Assembly: GCA_041397775.1 (NCBI GenBank)
Contig: JAWKWB010000011.1
Location: 27,257 to 91,256 of the forward strand
From: Hyphomicrobiaceae bacterium
GTDB lineage: Bacteria; Pseudomonadota; Alphaproteobacteria; Rhizobiales; Hyphomicrobiaceae
Length of the DNA stretch: 64,000 nt
Direction of reading: 5' to 3'
The stretch's first letter is position 1; every line of letters begins with the position of its first letter. This document shows positions 8,754 through 42,508 of the stretch, piece by piece. The position numbers and the translations under genes are program-made. The notes under the pieces were generated by a model. It had not been told where the DNA came from, searched no databases, and saw only the letters and a list, made by a program, of their open reading frames with translations.

Positions 8754-9584
8754 ATGAGCACTCCGCGCACCATCCTCATCACGGGATGCTCGACCGGCAT
8801 CGGCCTGGCATCGGCGCGGACGCTGAAGTCGCGTGGCTGGCGCGTCATCGCCACGGCGCGCAAGCCGGAAGACATCGCGCGCCTGAAAGCCGACGAAGGC
8901 CTGGAGACGCTGCATTGCGAGATGGCCGACACGCAATCGGTCGCCCAGTGTGTGGAGGAAGCGCTGGCACTCACGAGTGGGCGGCTCGATGCGCTCTACA
9001 ACAACGCGGCCTACGGCATCATCGGTGCGATGGAGGACGTGACGCCGGACAAGCTGCGGCATCAATTCGAGGTCAACGTGATCTCGGCTCACGCCCTGAC
9101 GCGCGGGGTGGTGCCTGCAATGCGGGCGCAGGGTCATGGCCGCATCGTGATGTGCTCGTCGGTGCTGGGGTTCATCGCGGGGCCCTATCGCGGGGCCTAT
9201 TGCGCCAGCAAGTACGCCCTGGAGGCAATGTCCGATGCCTTCCGGCTGGAACTGAAGCCATCTGGCATTCACGTGTCGCTGATCGAGCCGGGCCCGATCG
9301 AATCGGAGTTCCTCGCCACGACGATCACCAGCTTCAAGAACGGCATCGACATGGCCAATTCCGCACATGCCGCCTACTACGAGCGGCGGCTCGCGGAAAT
9401 GCAGGTGGGCGGCAAGAGTTCCATCAAGCTCGGGCCGGACGCGGTCGTCGCCAGGCTGGTCCATGCCCTCGAAAGCCCGCGACCGAAGGCACGCTATCGC
9501 GTGGGTCTCGCCACGCATGCCGCAGCGATCCTCAAGCGCGCGCTCCCCGACGTGTTGCTCGACCGCGTGCTCATGCGCATGTGA
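8754..9584 (+). CDS. SDR family oxidoreductase
   Basis: TGCSTGIG cofactor motif, NNAAYG, and YCASKYALE catalytic Y-x3-K. Confidence 0.85.
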   Translation: MSTPRTILITGCSTGIGLASARTLKSRGWRVIATARKPEDIARLKADEGLETLHCEMADTQSVAQCVEEALALTSGRLDALYNNAAYGIIGAMEDVTPDKLRHQFEVNVISAHALTRGVVPAMRAQGHGRIVMCSSVLGFIAGPYRGAYCASKYALEAMSDAFRLELKPSGIHVSLIEPGPIESEFLATTITSFKNGIDMANSAHAAYYERRLAEMQVGGKSSIKLGPDAVVARLVHALESPRPKARYRVGLATHAAAILKRALPDVLLDRVLMRM

Positions 9585-15519: not shown

Positions 15520-15596
15520 CTAGCGTTCCTCATGGTTCCGACATTTGCTCTCGGACATCCGGCAAAGGCATGCAAATGTCGGAGCCGGAACGCTAG
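15520..15596. repeat. Palindromic repeat family B' (variant of B)
   Basis: ctagcgttcctcatggttccgacatttgc...gcaaatgtcggagccggaacgctag. Reverse-complement match to 32767-32843. Lies 13 bp from the family A copy, as at the other composite loci. Confidence 0.85.
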
Positions 15597-15657
15597 AATT
15601 CGCCCCAACTTGAGGCCGAAACGAGGCAACGCCCATTGCCCGCAGCAGGAGGAGCCG

Positions 15658-24975: not shown

Positions 24976-25332
24976 TCAGAACAGTTCGCCCAGATGGGTT
25001 TCCTGAATGAGGTCGATACCCGTGATCGATTTCAGGGCATAGATCGCCACGAGGCCACCGAAGCCGAGCACTGTCGAGACACCCACCGTCATGCCCGCAA
25101 TGATCAACTTGTCCGAGAGCGCGTGGACGATGTGGACGCTCTGGCCGTGACCGAACGGAGTGTCCGGCGCATGCTCATCGGGGCCGATCCGGGCCTCCCC
25201 CCGCTCGTCGGCGATCGGCATGGCGAGCACATCGCCTGCGTAGGCCGACTCCTGGGGCTCCTGCCCTTCCCGGTGCGCCGTCGACTCCTCGCGACGCCAA
25301 TTCTCATGCCCGACAGCGACGATGCGTGCCAT
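24976..25332 (-). CDS. Hypothetical small protein with a C-terminal membrane anchor
   Basis: 118 aa from the ATG at 25332. Acidic, His-rich N-terminal part and one or two C-terminal hydrophobic helices (IIAGMTVGVSTVLGFGGLVAIYAL). Confidence 0.45.
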   Translation of the reverse strand: MARIVAVGHENWRREESTAHREGQEPQESAYAGDVLAMPIADERGEARIGPDEHAPDTPFGHGQSVHIVHALSDKLIIAGMTVGVSTVLGFGGLVAIYALKSITGIDLIQETHLGELF

Positions 25333-25439
25333 GACGAGCTCCGATATCGTTATGCCTACCAAAGCGTAGGATATCGATCTTAACGAATTGGAAAATAGTT
25401 GCGCAAAATGCAGATTTTCTTGGCCTGAAATACGCAAAA

Positions 25440-25476
25440 ATTGCTGTTTGCCGATCGGCATCATGCGCCGATCGGC
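25440..25476 (-). terminator. Hairpin, putative terminator, after the Sdh-like flavoprotein gene
   Basis: GCCGATCGGC-7 nt-GCCGATCGGC (10-bp stem). A TTTTT run follows 9 nt downstream on the minus strand, which is non-canonical spacing. Confidence 0.4.
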
Positions 25477-25483
25477 TAAATCT

Positions 25484-27310
25484 TCACTCCGCCGCTTGCG
25501 GTGCGTCCTTGATCAACGTTTCGCCCGGCTTGACGTGCGTGAAAATCACGGGCTCGTCACCGACGTGAAGCTTGCCGTCGACCTCCCGTACCACGGTGAA
25601 GCGCGATGTCTCCATGGCGCCGGGCTCCTTGAAGTCCTCGCGGTAGTGGGCGCCCCGGCTGTTCTCCCGCTTCAGCGCCGCATGCGCGACGACCTTGGAC
25701 ATCACGATCTGCGAGCGCAGGTTCAGCCAGTCGTGCCAGGACAGATTGAAGGCGCGATTGGTGTCGGGCACGCCGGCTGCCGACAGTTGCGCATCGAGCG
25801 TGTCGAGCTCATGCAGCGCCCGCTCCATACCCGACTTCTCACGGATGATGCCAACGTCGTCCCACATCAGGTCGAGAAGCGTGTCGCGAATGTCGTTGGC
25901 GTCGCTCAAGTGGGCCTTCGGTTGCCCACCAGCAACCGGCTCTCCGGGCGCCTTCAGTTGCCCACCAGCAACCGGCGCGTTCACCCGGAACGGGGCTTCA
26001 GCGCGCGCGATCTCGGCGGCAACCACGTCCAGATCGGGCGCGCGGTCGCCAAGGCCGCGCTTGATGTCGGCTGCCATCGTCGCGCCGGCGATGCCGCCAT
26101 AGACCGTCGAGTTGGCAACGCCGTTGCCGCCCAGACGGTTTGCTCCATGCACGCCGCCCGCGTCCTCGCCGGCCACGTAGAGGCCGGGCACTTCGGTCGA
26201 CGTGTCCACCTTGCAGACGACGCCGCCCATCAGGTAGTGCGCGGTCGGGACGACCTCCACCAGGCCGCCCGCCAGATCGAAGCCGCAATCAGCGCAGCGC
26301 TCGACCATACCCTTGAACTGCTTGGCAACCTTTTCAGGCCCCAGATGGCCCATGGAGATATAGAGCCCGCCGTTGGGCGTCGTGCGCCCGGCCTGCATCT
26401 CGCGATACATCGACTGCGAGACGAGGTCGCGCGTGGCGCGCTCACCGCGCGGATCGTAGTTGAACATGAAGCGCTGCCTGGAGCCGTCGAGCAGGTAGCC
26501 GCCGGCACCGCGCAGGCCTTCCTCGATGATCGTGCCGGTCATGCGCGTGTTGGGGCCCGCGAGCACGCCCGTGGGATGGAACTGCACCATCTCCATGTCA
26601 CGCAGTGGCAGGCCGTAGCGCAGCGCCATGGCGAGGCCGTCCATCGCCTTGTCGCCCGAAGGCGTATGATATTTGTACATCGTCGGCCCGCCGCCGGTGG
26701 CGAGCAGCACGGCCTTGGCGGTGATCAAGCGGAACTTGCCGGTGCGGATGTCGATGAAAAGAACGCCCGCCACCGGCCTGTTGGCGGCCGGCCCCGTCGC
26801 CCCCTTCTCGGGAATGAGTGCGATGGCGCGGTGCTCCTCCAGCCGCTGGATCGACGGCCGCGCCCAGACCTGCTCCATGAGGCGGTTGATGATCTCGATG
26901 CCCGTGAGATCGCCCTTGTGCACAGTGCGGTCGAACGTCTGGCCAGCGAAGGCCTTGCCGTGCAGCGAGCCGTCCGAATTCCGGTCGAAGAAGCAGCCGA
27001 TCTCGTTCTCCAGCTCGCGCACGCGCTCGACGGCCTTCTCGACGAGCGTCCAGGCCAGCTCCTGGTTGGGCAGCCATTTGCCGCCGTCGATGGTGTCCAT
27101 GAAGTGGCGCTCGACCGAGTCGCCCTTGTGCAGCGAAACATTGTAGCCGCCCTGCACCATGCGCGTGCAGCCGGACTTGCCGAGCAGTCCCTTGGTCGCC
27201 ACCGTGATCTGGAGGTGGGGATTGGCGCGATGCGCGTGAAGCGCCGCGAACAGCCCGGCGCCGCCCGAGCCCAGGATCAGAATGTCGGTCGTCAGCGTTT
27301 CGATGGTCAT
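25484..27310 (-). CDS. Succinate dehydrogenase/fumarate reductase-type flavoprotein subunit (atypical)
   Basis: 608 aa from the ATG at 27310. Motifs present: ILGSGGAGL dinucleotide fold, [24 protein letters not shown]. The 106-aa upstream extension in the ORF track was rejected. Confidence 0.85.
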
Positions 27311-27315
27311 GGGGG

Positions 27316-27669
27316 TCACGCCGCGTTGAAAATGTAGATGCAGGCGATGGTGACAGCCGTGACGATGGCCGCCATGGCCATGCGCTTCTGTCCGTCCCGC
27401 CATGGCATGTTCTCGATCACCAGCACACGAAGCCCGCCCAGCAGGTGCACTGCGAGCAGCATCACGAGTACGGTCTCCGCGAGCTTGACCAGCGGGCTGT
27501 GCGTCCAGCGCAGGAAGCCATCGAGATCGGCCTCGCCCCGGATCGCCAAGCCGAGCACCAGGAAATGCAGCGGCAGGAAGCAGGCGAGCGCCACGCCGGA
27601 AACGCGATGAAGCATCGCCGCCCGCCACAACGGTTCGCGCCGGTAGGTCGTATTGCTGGGTCGCGCCAT
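27316..27669 (-). CDS. Sdh/Frd-type hydrophobic membrane-anchor subunit
   Basis: 117 aa with three predicted TM helices. The N-terminus ([18 protein letters not shown]) resembles FrdC-type anchors. Its start shares 1 nt with the upstream stop (TGATG). Confidence 0.6.
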
Positions 27670-28007
27670 CACATCACCACCGCTGCAACGGCCCGCAGGC
27701 CGAGGACGACGAGAACCACGCCGAAGGCCCACATTGCGATGTCCAGCGCCCGCGGATCGTGGGCGAGGCGGCGAGGCCCCCACTCCCGCAGCACCGCACG
27801 CACGCCGATGGCGCCGTGGACGGATGCCGCCAATACGAACGTCGCATAGTAGAGCCCCCACAGCACGGAACCGCGGGTGCGCCCGAGAATCTCGGACGCC
27901 GTCAGGCCGTTGCGCGTGGCGTAGAAGATGACGATCAGGTGGCCCACGATGAGTGGAACCATCAGCAGCGCCGTCAAGCGCTGGAACGTGTAGAGGCGGA
28001 CGTTCAC
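27669..28007 (-). CDS. Sdh/Frd-type hydrophobic membrane-anchor subunit
   Basis: 112 aa from the GTG at 28007, which overlaps the FeS-subunit stop (GTGA). Three predicted TM helices. Confidence 0.55.
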
Positions 28008-28747
28008 TTCAAGTCCCCACGGATATAGGCCTGCATGGTGCGGCGCTTGAGGCCGGCGATCGAGGCCGTCGGATTGAGGGCCACCGGGCAATGCTGCTCA
28101 CACGACTGGTGCGTGTGGCAGGCGTGGCACCCGCCATTCTGCGAGACGGCGAACAGGCGCTCGACATTGCCGGCATCGCGTACGTCGTTGACGAGGGTCC
28201 AGGCGCGGTTGAGGGCGGCCGGGCCGAAGTAGTCCTCGTTCCAGCGGACGGTATCGCATGCCGCAAAGCAGACGCCGCAGTTGATGCACTCGATGGCGGC
28301 GTCGGCCGCCTGCCGTTCCGCCGACTGCGGGGAAATCGGCTCGATCGGATCGGCGCGCGTCTTGGAGGGTTCGAAGGCGCCTTTCGCTTCCTGCCACTTC
28401 TCGAAAAAGCGGCTCATGTCGGTGGCCAGATCCTTGATGACCGGGAGGTTGGCCAAGGGGCCGATCTGCAGCTTGCCGTCCTCGACCACCTTGGAGACGT
28501 GCGTGCGGCACGTCCAGCGTGGACGACCGTTCACGGTCATGGCGCACGACCCGCAGACGCCGACGCGGCAGGCGAAGCGATACGAAAGCGTGGGATCCAG
28601 GTAGCGCTGCACATGCGTGACGACATCCAGCACCGTCTGGTTGTCGCGGAGCGGCACAGTGAACGTCTCGTAGCGGCCTTCTGCCTCGCCGCGCCAGATG
28701 GAGACCGCGATCGTGCGGGTCTCGGTCGTATTCGGCATGTCCTGCAT
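28004..28747 (-). CDS. Succinate dehydrogenase/fumarate reductase-type iron-sulfur subunit
   Basis: 247 aa. The 2Fe-2S (CRVGVCGSCAM...C), 4Fe-4S (CINCGVCFAAC) and third-cluster (CHACHTHQSCEQHCP) motifs are all present. The ATG at 28747 shares 1 nt with the upstream stop. Confidence 0.85.
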   Translation of the reverse strand: MQDMPNTTETRTIAVSIWRGEAEGRYETFTVPLRDNQTVLDVVTHVQRYLDPTLSYRFACRVGVCGSCAMTVNGRPRWTCRTHVSKVVEDGKLQIGPLANLPVIKDLATDMSRFFEKWQEAKGAFEPSKTRADPIEPISPQSAERQAADAAIECINCGVCFAACDTVRWNEDYFGPAALNRAWTLVNDVRDAGNVERLFAVSQNGGCHACHTHQSCEQHCPVALNPTASIAGLKRRTMQAYIRGDLK

Positions 28748-29844
28748 CAGCGTACCGTCACCTTGATCTTCTGAACCGAGTTGATGCCGAAGCCGGCGCG
28801 ATCGAACGGAACGTCCAGGGGTTGCGTGGCGCCGTCGGCGTCCGTTGCGCACGAACCGATCTCGTACTCGCCGGGCGTTGCCTCCCACGCGCATTGCCAG
28901 CCGCGCCAGGCATAACGGCCCATGGGTGCGTCGAGCGTCGCAGGATAGGCCACGCCATCGATGAGCACATCGACCTTTTCGATCGCGACGCCACCCCCCG
29001 ACCAGGCGCGACCGCGCAGGATTACAGGGCCACGCTCGACCAGTCTCTGGCGCGTGTACCAATCGGGCATGCCCGGCGGCACCATCAGCGACTTGACCTT
29101 GATCGTGGTGACAGGCACGCCGGCGTCCGTCGCGTGGGTCTTGTAGAGATAGCCGCGAACCTGCTCGTAACCCTCGTACGGCTTGTCCAGCACCTCGATG
29201 CGCTCGAGCCACTTGACGCTCGCCATGCCGAACCAGCCCGGCACGATGAGCCGCAGGGGGAAGCCGTGCTGCGGCAGCAGCGGCTGGCCGTTCATGGCGT
29301 AGACGAGGAGCACGTCGTCCGACAGCGCCATTTTCGTCGTCAGGCTGCGGCCGAACTCGTGCTCGTGGCCCTTGTCATAGCCGCGGTCGGCGCCGAGGAA
29401 CGCGATCTCGACGGTGCCCGGCTTCAGGCCGGCCTTCTCCAGAACGCCCCGAAGCGGCGTTCCCGTCCATTCGGCGGTGCCGACGGCCTCGGAGACCCAC
29501 GGCATGCTCGGCCAACGCGGGCTGACGTGGGCACGCCCATTGCCGGCGCATTCCATCGTCACGCGCAGCGTGCGGGCGGGCAATGCCTTGATCTGGGCCA
29601 CGCTCAGCGACAGGGGCTGCGAGACATTGCCGTCGACCGCAAGGCGCCATGCCGCGCCGTCCTCGACATAGGGCACGTCGAAGTGGCTCAGCAGATAGTG
29701 CAGGCCGAGCGGCGTCACGTCGTGGCGCAGTGCCTCCGTCAGGATGCCGTGGTTCCTGTTGGCGAGAACGACTTCCTCGCGCATGAAGGGGCCTTCGAGG
29801 TGGTCGCGCGATGCGGGATCGGTAAACGGATTGCGGTTCGACAT
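28747..29844 (-). CDS. Sulfite oxidase-family (SUOX-fold) molybdopterin oxidoreductase, cytoplasmic type
   Basis: 365 aa from the ATG at 29844. Oxidored_molyb-like core (VTMECAGNGR, LLVYAMNGQPLLPQHGFPLRLIVPGWFGMASVKWL) plus a dimerisation-like C-terminus. No signal peptide or heme domain. Confidence 0.8.
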   Translation of the reverse strand: MSNRNPFTDPASRDHLEGPFMREEVVLANRNHGILTEALRHDVTPLGLHYLLSHFDVPYVEDGAAWRLAVDGNVSQPLSLSVAQIKALPARTLRVTMECAGNGRAHVSPRWPSMPWVSEAVGTAEWTGTPLRGVLEKAGLKPGTVEIAFLGADRGYDKGHEHEFGRSLTTKMALSDDVLLVYAMNGQPLLPQHGFPLRLIVPGWFGMASVKWLERIEVLDKPYEGYEQVRGYLYKTHATDAGVPVTTIKVKSLMVPPGMPDWYTRQRLVERGPVILRGRAWSGGGVAIEKVDVLIDGVAYPATLDAPMGRYAWRGWQCAWEATPGEYEIGSCATDADGATQPLDVPFDRAGFGINSVQKIKVTVR

Positions 29845-29864
29845 CTTACCCCTGAAGTGCAGCC

Positions 29865-29941
29865 CTAGTGTTCCTTCTGGCTCCGACACTTGGTCCAGAG
29901 CCCGATGCACGGGGAACCAAGTGTCGGAGCCGGAACACTAG
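29865..29941. repeat. Palindromic repeat family B, solo copy
   Basis: Near-identical to 2832-2908. Lies between the tauE-like stop (29995) and the SUOX-like start (29844). Confidence 0.9.
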
Positions 29942-29994
29942 ACCGCGGAATGTCTAGCAAAGCGCTGGCCGAGGCAAGTCCTGCAGGCGGCGGT

Positions 29995-30807
29995 TCAGCC
30001 GCCCACGAAATAGCCGCGAATGGCGCTCAGCAGTGCGCCGACGCCGACGCAGGCCAGGATGGTCAGGGCCGCGCGCCGGTAGTAGGCCGCGCCACCCCTA
30101 TGGAAATGCCGGCTGCCGAGCCACGTCGCGCCGGAATAGAGCGGGAACAACGCCAGCGAAAGCAACACGGCGTGCTTGGTGAACAGCCCGAAGTAGTACA
30201 TCGGGATGACGGACGACATCGACACGCCCGCCATGAGCGCCAGCACGTTGGCCCGCTGCTGCTGCGGCGTGCCCGGGCGCGACAGTGCGAGACCGACGAC
30301 AGGCGGCCCGCCCATGCCGGCAATGCCCTGGATGAGGCCGCTGAACACGCCGGCGGTCATGAGCCCGGCGCGCGGCACCTCCTTCTTGGGCATCCAGCCT
30401 GCCGCGAGGAAACCCACCATCACGAGCACCAGGACGGAGATGGCGATCTTCATCACCGCAGGGTCTGCGGCGACCAGCAGCCAAGTCCCGATCGGCGTGA
30501 TGAAGAATGCCGTCAGGCACATCGGCGCGACGAAGCGATGCTCCGATCCGCGGATCGCTTCCGGCAGGAGCTGCATCAGAGATGGCACGCCCATCAGATT
30601 GACCACGGCCACGGCCACCTGCGGACCGATGACGAGGCTCATGATGGGCACTGATACCAGTGCCGCGCCGAAGCCGATGAAGCCGCGCATGAAGCCGGCG
30701 GCAAACACCGTGACCGCGACCAGCAGCCAGCGCGCATCGACGGTTGCGCCGAGAAGGTCCGTCACCGGCGGGAATCCTTGAGCGTTGCGGGTGGAGAGGG
30801 TGCGCAT
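29995..30807 (-). CDS. TauE/SafE family sulfite-exporter-type membrane protein
   Basis: 270 aa, polytopic, with duplicated glycine motifs (GFIGFGAALVSVP and GIAGMGGPPVV) typical of PF01925. Confidence 0.75.
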   Translation of the reverse strand: MRTLSTRNAQGFPPVTDLLGATVDARWLLVAVTVFAAGFMRGFIGFGAALVSVPIMSLVIGPQVAVAVVNLMGVPSLMQLLPEAIRGSEHRFVAPMCLTAFFITPIGTWLLVAADPAVMKIAISVLVLVMVGFLAAGWMPKKEVPRAGLMTAGVFSGLIQGIAGMGGPPVVGLALSRPGTPQQQRANVLALMAGVSMSSVIPMYYFGLFTKHAVLLSLALFPLYSGATWLGSRHFHRGGAAYYRRAALTILACVGVGALLSAIRGYFVGG

Positions 30808-30902: not shown

Positions 30903-31937
30903 TCAGGCGGCGATCATGACCTTGGCAACGGCCTCGGTCAGGCCGCGCGGCAGGCCGTTCGCCTCGCGGCGCAGGAAGCCCAGCAGGGCCATGAGATTTT
31001 CCGTCGGCCGGCCGCCGGTGGCGATGCGGGTGATCAGCCACTCCTCGTCAGTCTCGTGAATGGGCTCGCGGGTGACGATTTCCAGACGCTGGCGCTCGAG
31101 ACGGGCCAGCGCGCGCTCCTCCGGCGATTGCGGGCGGCAGGAGGACCAGACGAAGCCACCCTGGAGTGGTACGGCACCCTCCAGAATTTCGTTGACGGTA
31201 TTGCCTGCGTCCCGGCCGGCAGAGCGGAGGGTCTGGAGGACCAGTGGCTCGGCCGGCGCACAAATGAAATCACGGCGCGAACCGATGGCGCGCCCCAGTC
31301 CCGACAACATCCCGTTGCCAATCGCCCGCACGAAGAAGTCCGACCAGGCCGGGCAGCTGTGGCCCGGCGCTATGGCGCGTTCGATCTCGAAAAGGGCGTC
31401 GGCTTCCGTGCGCGTGACCGCAAGTGCGCCATCGCCACTGAAGGCGACCAGGATGCGGCGCGCCAACGCGACATCGCTTTCCAGAATGGTGGCCGGCGCG
31501 CCATTGCCCTTGGCGCGTAGGGGGCCGGTGCCCGTTTCGACGGCGCGGCGGATCTGATCCAGCGCGAATGCGGCGAGGCTGGGCGGCGACCAGCGGGAGG
31601 TCTCGATGATATGGATCAGAAGCGTCAGTTCGATATGCGACGCCACGTGCCCTTCGGGGGCGATGCAGGACTTCAGCCAGTCGAGCTTGTCGATGACGAC
31701 ATAGCCGTCGGGCGGGCACTGATGGACGACGTGATCGCACAAGGCCTCGACGAAGAACTCCGCCCAGGCGGGATCCTTGATCCGACAGGCGGCGTTCAGG
31801 CCGACGAGCGTCGCGGCCTCCTCGGCCGTTACGACCGGCGCCTCCTGGTAGGCCGCTCGCAGACGCGCGACATCGGCATCCCTGATGCTTCCGCGAGCAT
31901 GGATTTCGTCGACCGGGACCGAAGTCAAAATGCCCAT
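30903..31937 (-). CDS. Hypothetical protein with two-fold internal repeat
   Basis: 344 aa from the ATG at 31937 (the ORF-track start at 31979 is a TTG). Repeated modules ...VTAEEAATL...DPAWAEFFVEAL... and ...VTRTEADALF...CPAWSDFFVRAI.... No family recognised. Confidence 0.55.
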   Translation of the reverse strand: MGILTSVPVDEIHARGSIRDADVARLRAAYQEAPVVTAEEAATLVGLNAACRIKDPAWAEFFVEALCDHVVHQCPPDGYVVIDKLDWLKSCIAPEGHVASHIELTLLIHIIETSRWSPPSLAAFALDQIRRAVETGTGPLRAKGNGAPATILESDVALARRILVAFSGDGALAVTRTEADALFEIERAIAPGHSCPAWSDFFVRAIGNGMLSGLGRAIGSRRDFICAPAEPLVLQTLRSAGRDAGNTVNEILEGAVPLQGGFVWSSCRPQSPEERALARLERQRLEIVTREPIHETDEEWLITRIATGGRPTENLMALLGFLRREANGLPRGLTEAVAKVMIAA

Positions 31938-32060
31938 AAACACCCACCGACACGAGAGTGAACGAACAACACGAGGCAAAGTAGGGGCGTTATGGTTACC
32001 AACGCTCTAACGAATTGGCGTGTCGGGGGAGTGAGTGTGACTTTTCAGACGGTGTGGCGG

Positions 32061-32756
32061 TCAGAACTCATAACTGAAATGCTCGATCTCCGGCCGATAC
32101 CACTCGGCGACCAGAGCGCGGCTCTCGGGCGTGTAGTAGTCGCGATAACTGCCCTTGCGGTCCTTGGACACGTTCGCCTTCGGCAGGCTGACCTGGCCGG
32201 TGAGGCCAATGCGGCCGAGCACTTCGTCGAAATCGGCGTCGAGTGATTCGTAGCGGCCGACGAAGTCGAGGATGATGTGGTCCTGGGCGGTGTAGAGTTC
32301 CCAGTTCTCGACCCAGGCGCGGCGCTTGTCGCGGTTGAAGGTATCGAACGACGGCTTGTCCGCCGCCGCCTTCGACTTCGTCTTGTAGTGATACCAGGAG
32401 ACCTGACGGTCCCAGGGGTTCCGCTCGAAGGAGAATTTGAAGTAGCTGTTCCAGATCTCCTCGCCGCAATACGTCCGCACGCGCCAGGCGGGCATGTGCT
32501 CGTAATAGCCGACGGAGGGATGATAGTGCCGCTCCGGACGCCCCAGCAGCTTCTTCCAGAGCGGGCGGCGCGGTTTCTCGGGGTGCTCGATGCGATAGTT
32601 CTGGGCGGGCTTCTGGCGCACGCCGCGCAACTGCTCGCTGGCTTCGGTGATGACGTCGTCGGGGCCGCAAACAGCCGAGAGCGCCGCCTCGATCGAGGTG
32701 GAGCCCGTCTTGTACGTCTTGATGTAGATGAACTTGTGCGCGTGGCTCAGGATCAT
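32061..32756 (-). CDS. Sulfotransferase family protein
   Basis: 231 aa from the ATG at 32756. N-terminal PAPS-loop-like FIYIKTYKTGSTS and a later RNPWDR motif. The upstream in-frame extension is a translated repeat. Confidence 0.7.
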   Translation of the reverse strand: MILSHAHKFIYIKTYKTGSTSIEAALSAVCGPDDVITEASEQLRGVRQKPAQNYRIEHPEKPRRPLWKKLLGRPERHYHPSVGYYEHMPAWRVRTYCGEEIWNSYFKFSFERNPWDRQVSWYHYKTKSKAAADKPSFDTFNRDKRRAWVENWELYTAQDHIILDFVGRYESLDADFDEVLGRIGLTGQVSLPKANVSKDRKGSYRDYYTPESRALVAEWYRPEIEHFSYEF

Positions 32757-32766
32757 GGGCGAGCAT

Positions 32767-32843
32767 CTAGTGTTCCGGTTCCGACATTTGCATCTGCTTG
32801 CCGGACGTCCGAGAGCAAATGTCGAAACCAAAGCGAACACCAG
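32767..32843. repeat. Palindromic repeat family B' (inverted relative to 15520-15596)
   Basis: ctagtgttccggttccgacatttgcatctgcttgccggacgtccgagagcaaatgtcgaaaccaaagcgaacaccag. Confidence 0.85.
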
Positions 32844-41071: not shown

Positions 41072-42508
41072 TCAGGCTCCTTTTCCGCGCTTGAGGGTGG
41101 CGTTCACGGCGACCGCAAAGGCCACGATCAGCAATAGGCCGGCGAACATCGTCAGCAGCCACTGACGCCTGATCGCGTCGTTGAACTCCATCTCGATGCC
41201 GTAGTTGGCGAGTTCCATCTCGCTATGGCGGAACTTGACGGGAACGCCTGCGCGGACCTTGTCGGCGCCGGGATGCTTGGCGCTATTGACATGCGGCCAA
41301 CTGACCTGACCCGGATAGAAGAGCGTTACCTGCTTCGCCGGCTGGTCCCACTTCGGCGTCTCACCTTCGAACCGCACGGCCTTGACGTCGGCATCGCGAC
41401 CGAGCCCGACGGTGACCGGCAAGGACACGTAATGCCAGCGCCCGCCGGTCGCCTGACGGTGCACGGCGAAGGCCGCCTGGTAGATGCCGCGGTCGACGAA
41501 GATCTTGTCGTCGAGGCGGTTGCCGGTGTCCATCTTGCGCTGCAGGACCACGTCCCAGGAGCCGTTGTCCCAGCGGGCCGTGCCAGCCACCTTGATGTCC
41601 GCGCGCGAGCCCTCGCTGATACGAATGATCCGGCGCGGCAGCGTATCGCCGTCCTTCCAGGCGTGTGCCGGATCGAAGGGGATGGCGATGTCCTCACGCA
41701 GCGCGTGCTGCGCGTCCTGTGCGATTTTCCCGCCGACGATGTCGTCCCACTTCAACGCGGCGTGGCCAGCCTTGGCAGGATCGAACATCAGCCGCGGCTG
41801 CTTCTTGGCGCCGTCCCAGTTGGTCGCATACGGACCCTTGCCGGCATCGGAGAGCCGCGCCTCGCCCACGTTCTGGTCGTCGGACAGCTTGACCGGGTTC
41901 GAGCGTGCGGCACGCCAGTGCCACAGGTCCAGGAAGTATCCCGCGGCGCGCTGCGCCTTCAACTCGTCCTCCGGCACGACGGAGAGATAGTCGTTGATGT
42001 CACGCCGCGTTGCAGGGAGGTACTTCGTCGGCTCGTCCTGCTTGAGCTTCTTGCCGAGATAGGCATGCCCCTTGACCGCCTTCGCGTCGACTTCCTTGGT
42101 GAAGCCGGCGAGGCCCTGCCCGATGGTGACGTATCCGCCGTAGCGCGAGAACTCGGGCACGCTGCCGTCATCGACCATCATGGCGATGCGATCCTCGTGC
42201 AGCCCTTGCGGCTGGGAGCCGGGCACGGCGCGGCCCTGCACGACCCATTTTCCGCCCTCAAAGCGGAGCATGTCGTGGAAGATGCCGGGCTTCGGCGACG
42301 TCCAGCGATAGCGGAAGAAGATATCCTGGCCGTTGTATGCCGCCTGCACCGAGAGCGGTACCGTCAGCGTCTTGGGAACAGAAATGTGGCGTTTCGCATC
42401 ATCTTTGACGACGCCCGTGCCATGAGTGAACCAAGCAATGCCGAGCGCCCCTACGAAAATTGCAGCAGCAGGCAACAACAAAGCTTGGGAGCCATCGATC
42501 TTGGTCAC
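41072..42508 (-). CDS. Ethylbenzene dehydrogenase-like (EB_dh) heme-binding-domain protein, membrane anchored at both ends
   Basis: 478 aa, GTG start with a gaggaa RBS. N- and C-terminal TM helices. LDLWHWRAARSN motif characteristic of the EB_dh/DMSO-reductase gamma-like domain. Confidence 0.65.
   Translation of the reverse strand: MTKIDGSQALLLPAAAIFVGALGIAWFTHGTGVVKDDAKRHISVPKTLTVPLSVQAAYNGQDIFFRYRWTSPKPGIFHDMLRFEGGKWVVQGRAVPGSQPQGLHEDRIAMMVDDGSVPEFSRYGGYVTIGQGLAGFTKEVDAKAVKGHAYLGKKLKQDEPTKYLPATRRDINDYLSVVPEDELKAQRAAGYFLDLWHWRAARSNPVKLSDDQNVGEARLSDAGKGPYATNWDGAKKQPRLMFDPAKAGHAALKWDDIVGGKIAQDAQHALREDIAIPFDPAHAWKDGDTLPRRIIRISEGSRADIKVAGTARWDNGSWDVVLQRKMDTGNRLDDKIFVDRGIYQAAFAVHRQATGGRWHYVSLPVTVGLGRDADVKAVRFEGETPKWDQPAKQVTLFYPGQVSWPHVNSAKHPGADKVRAGVPVKFRHSEMELANYGIEMEFNDAIRRQWLLTMFAGLLLIVAFAVAVNATLKRGKGA

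Follow-up and report, generated by a model that had tools for sequence, protein, structure and literature searches.

A stretch of 64,000 nucleotides from the genome of a Hyphomicrobiaceae bacterium (assembly GCA_041397775.1, contig JAWKWB010000011.1, positions 27,257 to 91,256; hereafter the window) contains five overlapping or nearly overlapping minus-strand genes, from position 29844 down to 25484. They encode a molybdenum (Mo) protein of the sulfite oxidase (SUOX) family, an iron-sulfur (FeS) subunit, two three-helix membrane anchors and a flavoprotein, the last four similar to succinate dehydrogenase/fumarate reductase (Sdh/Frd). A first-pass annotation, made from the sequence alone, had interpreted them as a cytoplasmic Mo oxidoreductase wired to the quinone pool through an Sdh-like scaffold. 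Our analysis confirmed the observation itself and partly supported this interpretation. With moderate confidence we propose that the unit holds two parts of a single organosulfonate-catabolic pathway, an Sdh-like enzyme that would act on 3-sulfopropanoate and a Mo enzyme that would oxidize sulfite. The features of the locus are the following, with gene limits that include the stop codons:

29995..30807, minus strand: TauE/SafE (TSUP) transporter, 270 aa, upstream of and co-directional with the Mo gene (PF01925, 1.3e-21)
29865..29941, no strand: palindrome of about 80 bp with a perfect stem, a dispersed repeat in the tauE-Mo spacer that resembles repetitive extragenic palindromes (REP) or miniature inverted-repeat transposable elements (MITE)
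28747..29844, minus strand: SUOX-family Mo protein, 365 aa, with Mo and dimerization domains and the clade motif HYLLxHF (PF00174, 1.5e-55)
28004..28747, minus strand: FeS subunit, SdhB/FrdB-type, 247 aa (Fer2_3, 1.6e-28)
27669..28007, minus strand: anchor 1, SdhD-like, 112 aa, GTG start, three transmembrane helices (Sdh_cyt, 2.9e-06)
27316..27669, minus strand: anchor 2, SdhC/cytochrome b556-like, 117 aa, three transmembrane helices (Sdh_cyt, 4.1e-12)
25484..27310, minus strand: flavoprotein, SdhA/FrdA-family, 608 aa (FAD_binding_2, 1.2e-68; Succ_DH_flav_C, 1.5e-26)
25450..25476, minus strand: terminator-like hairpin, an inverted repeat 5 nt past the flavoprotein stop codon

Profile searches of the Pfam/NCBIfam type assigned each open reading frame (ORF) to the family that had been claimed for it, and all the described junctions were present: the TGATG overlap between the Mo stop and FeS start codons (28745-28749), GTGA at 28004-28007, TGATG at 27667-27671 and a gap of 5 nt at 27311-27315. 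The gene order had been given as B-C-D-A; the FeS gene is indeed the first and the flavoprotein gene the last of the four, but the anchors are swapped, gene 3 being SdhD-like and gene 4 SdhC-like, so that in E. coli terms the order is B-D-C-A.

The evidence for a function in sulfonate metabolism comes from the distribution of the Sdh-like genes. The order FeS-anchor-anchor-flavoprotein was found in more than 100 loci, with flavoproteins 62-82% identical to that of the window. Fumerase and Fumerase_C genes, for a class I fumarase-like hydro-lyase of two subunits, usually come next, and a LysR or a TctC gene often heads the set. Relatives of the flavoprotein in metagenomes (64-74% identity) stand mostly in the order LysR (often with TctC), FeS, anchor, anchor, flavoprotein, hydro-lyase alpha and hydro-lyase beta, without a Mo gene, which was present in only 1 of 18 well-flanked metagenome loci; in a variant of the cassette the hydro-lyase genes are located ahead of the flavoprotein gene. 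The arrangement that had been set apart from sdhCDAB and frdABCD is the norm of a large and mostly Mo-less family. In a tree of the flavoproteins the Mo-linked loci are scattered over four or more separate positions, and in a neighbor-joining tree of the Mo proteins the FeS-linked and unlinked genes are interleaved; since the linkage is polyphyletic on both trees, it appears to have been gained or lost repeatedly. In the genomes compared the set behaves, in short, as a stable six-gene cassette to which the Mo gene was attached, or from which it was lost, several times. Moreover, because its usual partner is a class I fumarase-like hydro-lyase, the Sdh-like module almost certainly has an organic substrate of its own and would not be merely a scaffold for the Mo protein. 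At least 14 records of cultured strains show a plasmid-borne cassette, in Methylobacterium nodulans, M. radiotolerans, Paracoccus versutus, Sulfitobacter, Pseudorhizobium banfieldiae NT-26, Cupriavidus necator N-1 and Pseudomonas sp. MPC6.

Besides Mo, sulfur markers accompany the cassette in 26 of 56 loci with a flank of at least 8 kb, a count that rises to 36 when Mo is included. Among the 112 loci that carry the flavoprotein, we found TauE in 19, Ldh_2 genes with L-sulfolactate dehydrogenase as the best NCBIfam match (below its cut-off) in 13, a 2-hydroxyacid dehydrogenase in 10, split UxaA-family pairs similar to SuyAB in 9, the putative sulfate exporter YeiH in 6, and other SUOX-family genes in 2, that of M. 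nodulans scoring above the SorA cut-off (696 bits). The split UxaA pair consists of a small subunit and a large subunit with GD_AH_second and GD_AH_C domains, which we take to be the architecture of SuyAB. Tripartite tricarboxylate transporters adjoining the cassette resemble the sulfolactate importer SlcHFG. Four plasmids illustrate this context:

M. nodulans pMNOD01: amidohydrolase, DctA, putative sulfate exporter, SorA (696 bits) with cytochrome c, and TauE; soxC with cytochrome c upstream
P. versutus pTAV3: YeiH, NIPSNAP, TauE, LysR, Ldh-family and hydroxyacid dehydrogenases, TctCBA
P. banfieldiae NT-26 p1 (NT26_p1): sulfate exporter, NIPSNAP, TauE, tripartite ATP-independent periplasmic (TRAP) transporter, succinate-semialdehyde dehydrogenase
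M. radiotolerans pMRAD01: thiamine pyrophosphate (TPP) enzyme, TauE, split UxaA pair, DctA, two dehydrogenases

The Mo gene itself is found in such surroundings. Three betaproteobacterial/Burkholderiales metagenome-assembled genomes (MAGs; loci L019, L025 and L048) show the order SuyA-SuyB-Mo-FeS-anchor-anchor-TctC-hydro-lyase alpha-beta-flavoprotein, continued by Ldh_2 in two of them, and Hoeflea marina shows FeS-anchor-anchor-flavoprotein-hydro-lyase alpha-beta-Mo-YeiH-NIPSNAP, so that Mo is flanked by SuyB and the FeS gene in the former and by the hydro-lyase beta gene and YeiH in the latter. The sulfur-oxyanion theme of the first-pass annotation is therefore strongly backed by gene context, through the SuyAB-like, Ldh_2, TauE, YeiH and SUOX markers.

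We propose the following pathway. Its substrates, the catalytic direction and the electron acceptor used by the Mo enzyme are deduced from the gene structure, the protein families, the conserved residues and the recurrent neighborhoods. Together, the FeS subunit, both anchors and the flavoprotein would make up a quinone-linked dehydrogenase of the Sdh/Frd superfamily, bound to the membrane and different from the tricarboxylic acid (TCA) cycle enzyme, that most likely converts the succinate analog 3-sulfopropanoate to sulfoacrylate. The two-subunit hydro-lyase encoded beside the flavoprotein in most relatives would hydrate sulfoacrylate to sulfolactate, from which a SuyAB-like sulfo-lyase and two sulfolactate-dehydrogenase-like enzymes, also encoded in relatives, would lead to the release of sulfite. 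The Mo enzyme would then, most likely, oxidize this sulfite to sulfate inside the cell, and the anion could be exported by TauE, or by YeiH-type exporters in relatives. The electrons of the Mo enzyme could enter the FeS/heme/quinone chain of the neighboring module or, equally, a generic acceptor. This route was chosen because no simpler chemistry would connect sulfolactate with both an Sdh-like dehydrogenase and a fumarase-like hydratase; sulfosuccinate and mercaptosuccinate, which the chemistry and the literature on Variovorax had brought up, were set aside as less parsimonious, given the linkage to SuyAB and sulfolactate dehydrogenases. Oxidation of pathway sulfite is assigned to the Mo enzyme because of its family, of its place beside SuyB or YeiH, and of the SorA/SoxC-type enzymes found around Mo-less cassettes.

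In the searchable open literature we found no names for the genes that convert 3-sulfopropanoate through sulfoacrylate to sulfolactate. According to PMC11489063, this degradation of 3-sulfopropionate is documented for Roseovarius nubinhibens in the thesis of J. Mayer only, which is cited there, and bacterial 3-sulfopropionate degradation is otherwise unreported. A review from January 2026 (PMC12890257) names no genes for 3-sulfopropionate degradation and calls the mechanism in Bilophila wadsworthia unclear. Nor did the literature searched contain a description of a SUOX:Sdh-type gene cluster.

The subunits of the module were compared with their homologs. The best match of the flavoprotein in the Protein Data Bank (PDB) is Sdh1 from Mycobacterium smegmatis (7D6V, 1.6e-83) and its best NCBIfam match is TfrA, with 485 bits versus a cut-off of 718, while all the SdhA/FrdA equivalog cut-offs were missed (sdhA_forward, 296 versus 727; FrdA PRK09231, 324 versus 854). 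These missed cut-offs, the plasmid-borne cassettes and the usual LysR regulation support that the Sdh-like set would not be the housekeeping succinate dehydrogenase (SDH). Cys48 aligns with FrdA His44, the covalent-FAD His of RSHTxxAQGG, just as the first-pass annotation had seen by hand, and in the alignment with Sdh1 it falls one residue off the FAD-linking His. The protein keeps the equivalents of FrdA H232, E245, R287, H355 and R390, five of the six dicarboxylate-site residues checked, and has Glu263 in place of the catalytic Thr (FrdA T244), a replacement that had escaped the earlier annotation. Neither Cys48 nor Glu263 varies among 22 family members, whether or not these have Mo. A 23-aa insertion rich in Ala, Pro and Gly (residues 446-468, positions 25907-25975) carries an internal near-repeat and is lineage-specific: at least 60% of the other 21 family members in the alignment lack it. 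Tandem Repeats Finder (TRF) detected no DNA tandem repeat at these positions.

The FeS subunit belongs to the Fer2_3 and Fer4 families and matches dhsB (TIGR00384) with 190 bits versus a cut-off of 88. It bears the three Cys clusters ascribed to it (2Fe-2S, 4Fe-4S and 3Fe-4S), whose 11 Cys are conserved in 78-80 homologs. An extra Cys207, conserved in 79 of 80 homologs, precedes the first Cys in the third cluster motif by three residues and might alter the 3Fe-4S site. In one relative (L175) a further gene of 81 aa without Pfam match is found between the FeS and anchor genes (9069-9314), and among the neighbors of this locus are TusA, two MoeA genes, a nitroreductase and a gene of the nitronate monooxygenase (NMO) family. 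The anchors, of 112 and 117 aa, have three hydrophobic helices each, as had been described; besides Sdh_cyt, anchor 1 gave a weak match to TIGR02968 and anchor 2 matched TIGR02970 with 56 bits, above the cut-off of 52.3. Invariant transmembrane His residues are found in anchor 1 at H23 (helix 1) and H64 (helix 2), conserved in 87/87 and 90/90 homologs, and in anchor 2 at H35 (helix 1) and H75 (helix 2). These four His make two b hemes possible, which suggests di-heme anchors, type A-like, rather than the single-heme type of E. coli SDH.

The Mo protein was compared with the SUOX family in the same way. It matches Oxidored_molyb (PF00174) over positions 1-168 of 169 of the profile with an E-value of 1.5e-55, and its closest solved relatives are all sulfite dehydrogenases or oxidases, Starkeya SorA being the best (3.9e-48). 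An AlphaFold2 model (pLDDT 72.7) superposed by Foldseek on SorA gave a template modeling (TM) score of 0.70 over 327 columns; this span and a SorA alignment that reaches residue 362 indicate that the C-terminal Ig-like dimerization domain is present, with Mo-co_dimer (PF03404) scoring 22.0 bits, slightly below its cut-off of 22.7. The equivalog cut-offs of SorA (200 versus 600 bits), SorT (153 versus 570) and SoxC (173 versus 420) were missed. The Mo ligand is Cys99 (chicken C185, SorA C104), within ECAGNGR and invariant in 23 aligned members of the clade, and R104, W126 and Y232 are the preserved equivalents of R190, W204 and Y322 of chicken sulfite oxidase. The sulfite-oxidizing pocket (chicken R138, R190, W204 and Y322) is nevertheless incomplete, in such a way that the position of R138 (SorA R55, nitrate reductase R89) is occupied by Leu throughout the clade, with HYLLxHF in 84 of 84 sequences; the sulfite oxidase of Deinococcus radiodurans, 40% identical to the Mo protein, keeps the Arg (HYVRSHF).

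Neither a hydrophobic segment nor an RR/Tat motif was detected in the N-terminus of the Mo protein, nor a heme domain in the protein, so that profiles, hydrophobicity and structure search agree with the earlier description of a SUOX-fold protein without signal peptide, Tat motif or heme domain. The signal or Tat peptide and the adjacent cytochrome c gene of periplasmic sulfite dehydrogenases are both absent, and the SUOX fold sets the protein apart from the catalytic subunit of SoeABC, a Mo-bis(pyranopterin guanine dinucleotide) (Mo-bisPGD) protein of the DMSO-reductase family. Deinococcus deserti plasmid 3 (L168, 5794-7134) encodes a 50% identical member of the HYLL clade with an N-terminal Tat-type signal (RRNFLALGAAAAGA), so that the clade is not confined to the cytoplasm. 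The heme-less sulfite oxidase gene of the D. radiodurans plasmid (L167, 5950-7020) lies inside a 4-hydroxyphenylacetate (hpa) catabolic cluster and overlaps a gene of the fumarylacetoacetate hydrolase family.

A scan of species-representative genomes with the Mo protein gave at least 595 confirmed relatives, of which the best 80 (51-67% identity) were examined with flanks of 10 kb. Four arrangements could be distinguished, in addition to stand-alone Mo genes:

Type I: Mo-FeS-anchor-anchor, with or without flavoprotein and with or without hydro-lyase genes; Hyphomicrobiaceae and relatives, betaproteobacterial/Burkholderiales MAGs
Type II: FeS-anchor-anchor-flavoprotein-hydro-lyase alpha-beta-Mo, to which a TPP enzyme may be added, with TauE, LysR and TctCBA nearby; Hoeflea, Marivita and other roseobacters
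Type III: upstream of Mo an aminotransferase and, on the opposite strand, ChaC; Burkholderiales (loci L036, L039, L045, L046, L049, L052, L063, L073, L074, L077 and L080)
Type IV: Mo-TPP enzyme (PRK07586)-aminotransferase; Granulosicoccaceae/Chromatiales (loci L037, L040, L042, L044 and L050)

The linkage of Mo to FeS and anchor genes, on which the first-pass interpretation depended, proved recurrent in this survey, in several lineages and two arrangements; among the 35 loci in which Mo has 6 kb or more on each side, an FeS gene accompanies it in 16. Roughly one half of the clade stands alone or has other partners, and types III and IV hint at a role in the catabolism of amino-sulfonates, sulfinates or cysteine. 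The TPP enzyme beside Mo was rejected as Xsc (160-190 bits versus a cut-off of 676). That the Mo protein has no obvious redox partner of its own was borne out by clustering of the neighbors, with no recurrent cytochrome, ferredoxin or reductase in the first 86 loci. One complete LysR-Mo-FeS-anchor-anchor-flavoprotein-hydro-lyase operon (L174) harbors a cytochrome P450 gene (12732-13958) between the hydro-lyase alpha and beta genes. No genuine Mo-FeS fusion was found among the best matches to a concatenated Mo and FeS query. The only two-domain candidate, P0241, was discarded as a frameshifted gene of a long-read MAG; it arose from two Microflora Danica long-read MAG contigs (L013 and L179) in which the cassette genes are broken by frameshifts. 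Long Mo-containing ORFs, in L033 and others, were dismissed as wrong-frame or over-extended.

The close linkage of Mo and FeS genes could also reflect a true SUOX:Sdh-type complex, in which the Mo protein would bind to the FeS subunit, either alongside the flavoprotein or in its place, and the electrons of sulfite would pass through the 2Fe-2S, 4Fe-4S and 3Fe-4S clusters and the heme b anchors to quinone, or to the FAD site. This idea, which is compatible with the sulfonate pathway as a sub-hypothesis on the electron acceptor, we consider possible but doubtful. It would account for the overlap of the Mo stop and FeS start codons in the window and for the called genes that abut or overlap in L001, L003 and L174, as well as for the Mo-FeS-anchor-anchor block that stays tight while the flavoprotein gene moves, either 1.7 kb away behind a TetR gene (L001) or to a divergent position (L003). 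In the clade of Hyphomicrobium sp. CS1BSMeth3 (L006, L009 and L012) the same block occurs without a flavoprotein gene within 8-10 kb, and the lack of a recurrent redox partner beside Mo differs from the SorA-type gene of M. nodulans with its cytochrome c. However, stop/start overlaps are common in operons whose products form no complex, no genuine fusion was retrieved by the concatenated query, and in Hoeflea and roseobacters the Mo gene lies at the far end of the operon, past the hydro-lyase genes. Furthermore, the members of the Mo clade that stand alone or next to aminotransferase/ChaC or TPP-enzyme genes are interleaved on the tree with the linked ones, so that the clade must have an acceptor other than the FeS subunit. 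Of the cytoplasmic oxidoreductase wired through an Sdh scaffold that had been put forward, the SUOX assignment, the lack of a signal peptide, the FeS linkage and the sulfur context have held, but a dedicated Mo:FeS wire is not required. We regard as unlikely a more specific form in which Mo, FeS and the two anchors would constitute a respiratory complex, a SUOX head on the FeS/di-heme scaffold of complex II, working as a sulfite/sulfinate:quinone oxidoreductase; the SUOX head would share the scaffold with, or take the place of, a 3-sulfopropanoate-oxidizing flavoprotein with 8-alpha-S-cysteinyl-FAD rather than histidyl FAD, and the CS1BSMeth3 clade would be the minimal form.

Other substrates were weighed against the proposed ones. 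The loss of the substrate Arg in all 84 HYLL sequences, when the sulfite oxidases of D. radiodurans and chicken, nitrate reductase and SorA keep it, would suit a sulfinate dehydrogenase (R-SO2- to R-SO3-) that feeds the Sdh-like step rather than following it, for example from 3-sulfinopropionate to 3-sulfopropanoate or from hypotaurine to taurine, and the aminotransferase, ChaC and TPP-enzyme neighbors are typical of amino-sulfonate and sulfinate metabolism. Nevertheless, the position of Mo next to SuyB and YeiH fits the conversion of sulfite to sulfate, no thiol dioxygenase gene was noticed beside Mo, although it was not searched for systematically, and we know of no characterized sulfinate dehydrogenase of the SUOX family; this makes the sulfinate assignment improbable. 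We give equally little credit to an ordinary alternative fumarate reductase or SDH with its fumarase, or a methylsuccinate/mesaconate enzyme, with Mo and TauE as neighboring detoxification genes. The equivalents of H232, R287, H355 and R390 have been retained, the matches of the hydro-lyase are to the fumarase and tartrate dehydratase families, one cassette stands beside glutamate mutase genes, as mesaconate would ask for, and loss of the covalent-FAD His favors fumarate reduction, as in the H44 mutants of E. coli FrdA. Yet the SuyAB-like, Ldh_2, TauE, YeiH and sulfite dehydrogenase genes recur in the same operons of unrelated lineages, Glu is invariant at the position of the catalytic Thr, every equivalog cut-off is missed, and control by LysR and TctC together with the plasmid location indicates a peripheral catabolic function. 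Finally, it is very improbable that the cassette acts on another succinate analog, 3-nitropropionate, to give nitroacrylate and then nitrite: three loci have nitroreductase-family genes close to the cassette and one has a gene of the NMO family, but sulfur markers are about ten times commoner, and the transfer of electrons from nitrite to quinone by a SUOX enzyme is thermodynamically impossible according to established redox potentials.

Several facts weigh against the sulfonate pathway that we prefer. Many cassette loci, many of them on short contigs, show no sulfur marker, and nitroreductase and NMO genes recur near a few. Hydro-lyase, SuyAB and Ldh_2 genes are not found near the locus of the window nor near L001, L003 and L177, and the 64 kb of the window contain none of them. 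The change of Arg to Leu in the Mo clade means that sulfite is perhaps not the substrate. Every substrate assignment rests on gene context, and no model of an enzyme acting on 3-sulfopropanoate exists.

Regarding the borders of the unit, the hairpin said to end it is real, with a stem of 11 bp (-23.3 kcal/mol, z = -3.97) and a U-run (AAUUUUU) 9 nt to its 3' side, although a simple terminator scan did not call it at 25450-25476. Directly downstream of the flavoprotein, a candidate gene of 162 aa with hydrophobic segments (24976-25464) overlaps this hairpin; it has no Pfam or NCBIfam match, and in the relative L177, whose flavoprotein is 94% identical, a gene of 101 aa is called at this place. 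At the other end, TauE lies upstream of Mo in the same orientation, as described, but the palindrome is not the whole separation: the conserved N-terminus among relatives places the Mo start at 29844, which leaves a spacer of 150 nt. The palindrome (29865-29941, 77 bp) has inverted repeats of 20 and 10 nt and an RNA fold of -64.1 kcal/mol (z = -8.9). A near-identical copy, with none expected by chance, lies about 27 kb away (approximately 2832-2908), the two having arms of 30 nt and differing only in the loop, and no palindrome is present in the syntenic tauE-Mo spacer of L177. This dispersion and the absence from the syntenic spacer indicate an insertion and not a dedicated regulator, and a role as operon-specific regulator was ruled out.

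The TauE protein has multiple hydrophobic segments and the PF01925 domain, and thus qualifies as a TauE/SafE-family predicted transporter. Its gene is syntenic next to Mo in L177 and L178, but its adjacency is lineage-specific and TauE was rejected as a universal partner of Mo, even though it recurs around the cassette. The sulfotransferase noted further upstream was found (Sulfotransfer_2, 32061-32840), with synteny only in the closest relative. Together with a 358-aa protein without family match it occupies 30903-32840, upstream of tauE, and this trio is syntenic in L177 and was not found in the other loci; a stretch of 30 aa at 15523-15612 is similar to the N-terminus of the sulfotransferase. 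About 11 kb from the locus, a 478-aa protein (41072-42508) carries an EB_dh domain (ethylbenzene dehydrogenase-type, heme-binding), with no link to the locus seen. The window is chromosomal, with glnA, uvrD and cysE close by, and contains neither a second Sdh paralog nor a TPP-enzyme gene. Rfam and tRNA scans gave no relevant match.

Compared with known systems, the Mo protein resembles SorAB/SorT from Starkeya novella and Sinorhizobium meliloti in its two-domain fold (33% identity to SorA, TM 0.70), its Cys Mo ligand and the equivalents of SorA Arg109, Trp and Tyr236, whereas it has Leu for SorA Arg55, no cytochrome c partner gene and no signal peptide, being presumably cytoplasmic. The sulfite oxidases of D. 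radiodurans (DRA0225) and plants likewise consist of Mo and dimerization domains without a heme domain, and the former reportedly oxidizes sulfite with ferricyanide; the Mo clade differs from them in HYLLxHF, a conserved N-terminal extension of 40 residues and the frequent operon link to the Sdh-like cassette. The likeness to SoeABC, cytoplasmic oxidation of sulfite with transfer to quinone through an FeS subunit and an anchor, would hold only if the complex existed, and is one of analogy: SoeA belongs to the Mo-bisPGD enzymes in the DMSO-reductase family and works with NrfD-type anchors, whereas the parts in the window are a SUOX fold and SdhB/C/D-type subunits. With complex II, both the E. 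coli enzymes (quinol:fumarate reductase and succinate:quinone reductase) and M. smegmatis Sdh1, the module shares four subunits, three FeS clusters, heme-ligand His in two three-helix anchors, FAD and capping domains, and most dicarboxylate-site residues. It departs from complex II in the Cys for the FAD-linking His, the Glu for the catalytic Thr, the extra Cys207 of the FeS subunit, the gene order FeS-anchor-anchor-flavoprotein, the class I hydro-lyase partner, the sulfonate context and the plasmid or peripheral location.

An analogous case is TcuAB from Salmonella, in which an SdhA-family flavoprotein, encoded in a substrate-inducible operon, acts on the succinate analog tricarballylate and is re-oxidized through an FeS/membrane route; unlike the cassette, it has no SdhB/C/D homologs and no Mo enzyme, TcuB being a different FeS membrane protein. 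As for sulfolactate, the families described in Roseovarius nubinhibens, Chromohalobacter salexigens and Paracoccus pantotrophus (SlcHFG, SlcC/ComC, SuyAB, SuyZ and TauE) flank many cassettes. The published clusters start at sulfolactate, and the cassette with its hydro-lyase would add the upstream steps from 3-sulfopropanoate, a compound that arises from homotaurine, and from 2,3-dihydroxypropane-1-sulfonate (DHPS) and sulfoquinovose in gut and other anaerobes.

In our best interpretation of its proteins and neighborhoods, the locus would encode a complex II put to new use on a sulfonate, joined to a heme-less SUOX enzyme without signal peptide. If this is true, complex II would have been re-tooled for a sulfonate with a Cys replacing the FAD-linking His, and the 3-sulfopropanoate dehydrogenase and sulfoacrylate hydratase would provide candidate genes for a missing step of the organosulfonate cycle, present in cultured and tractable strains such as Hoeflea marina, Methylobacterium nodulans, M. 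radiotolerans, Paracoccus versutus and Sulfitobacter. The Mo protein, in turn, would mark out a large SUOX clade that is heme-less and has an altered active site; a signal peptide is missing from most of its members seen here.

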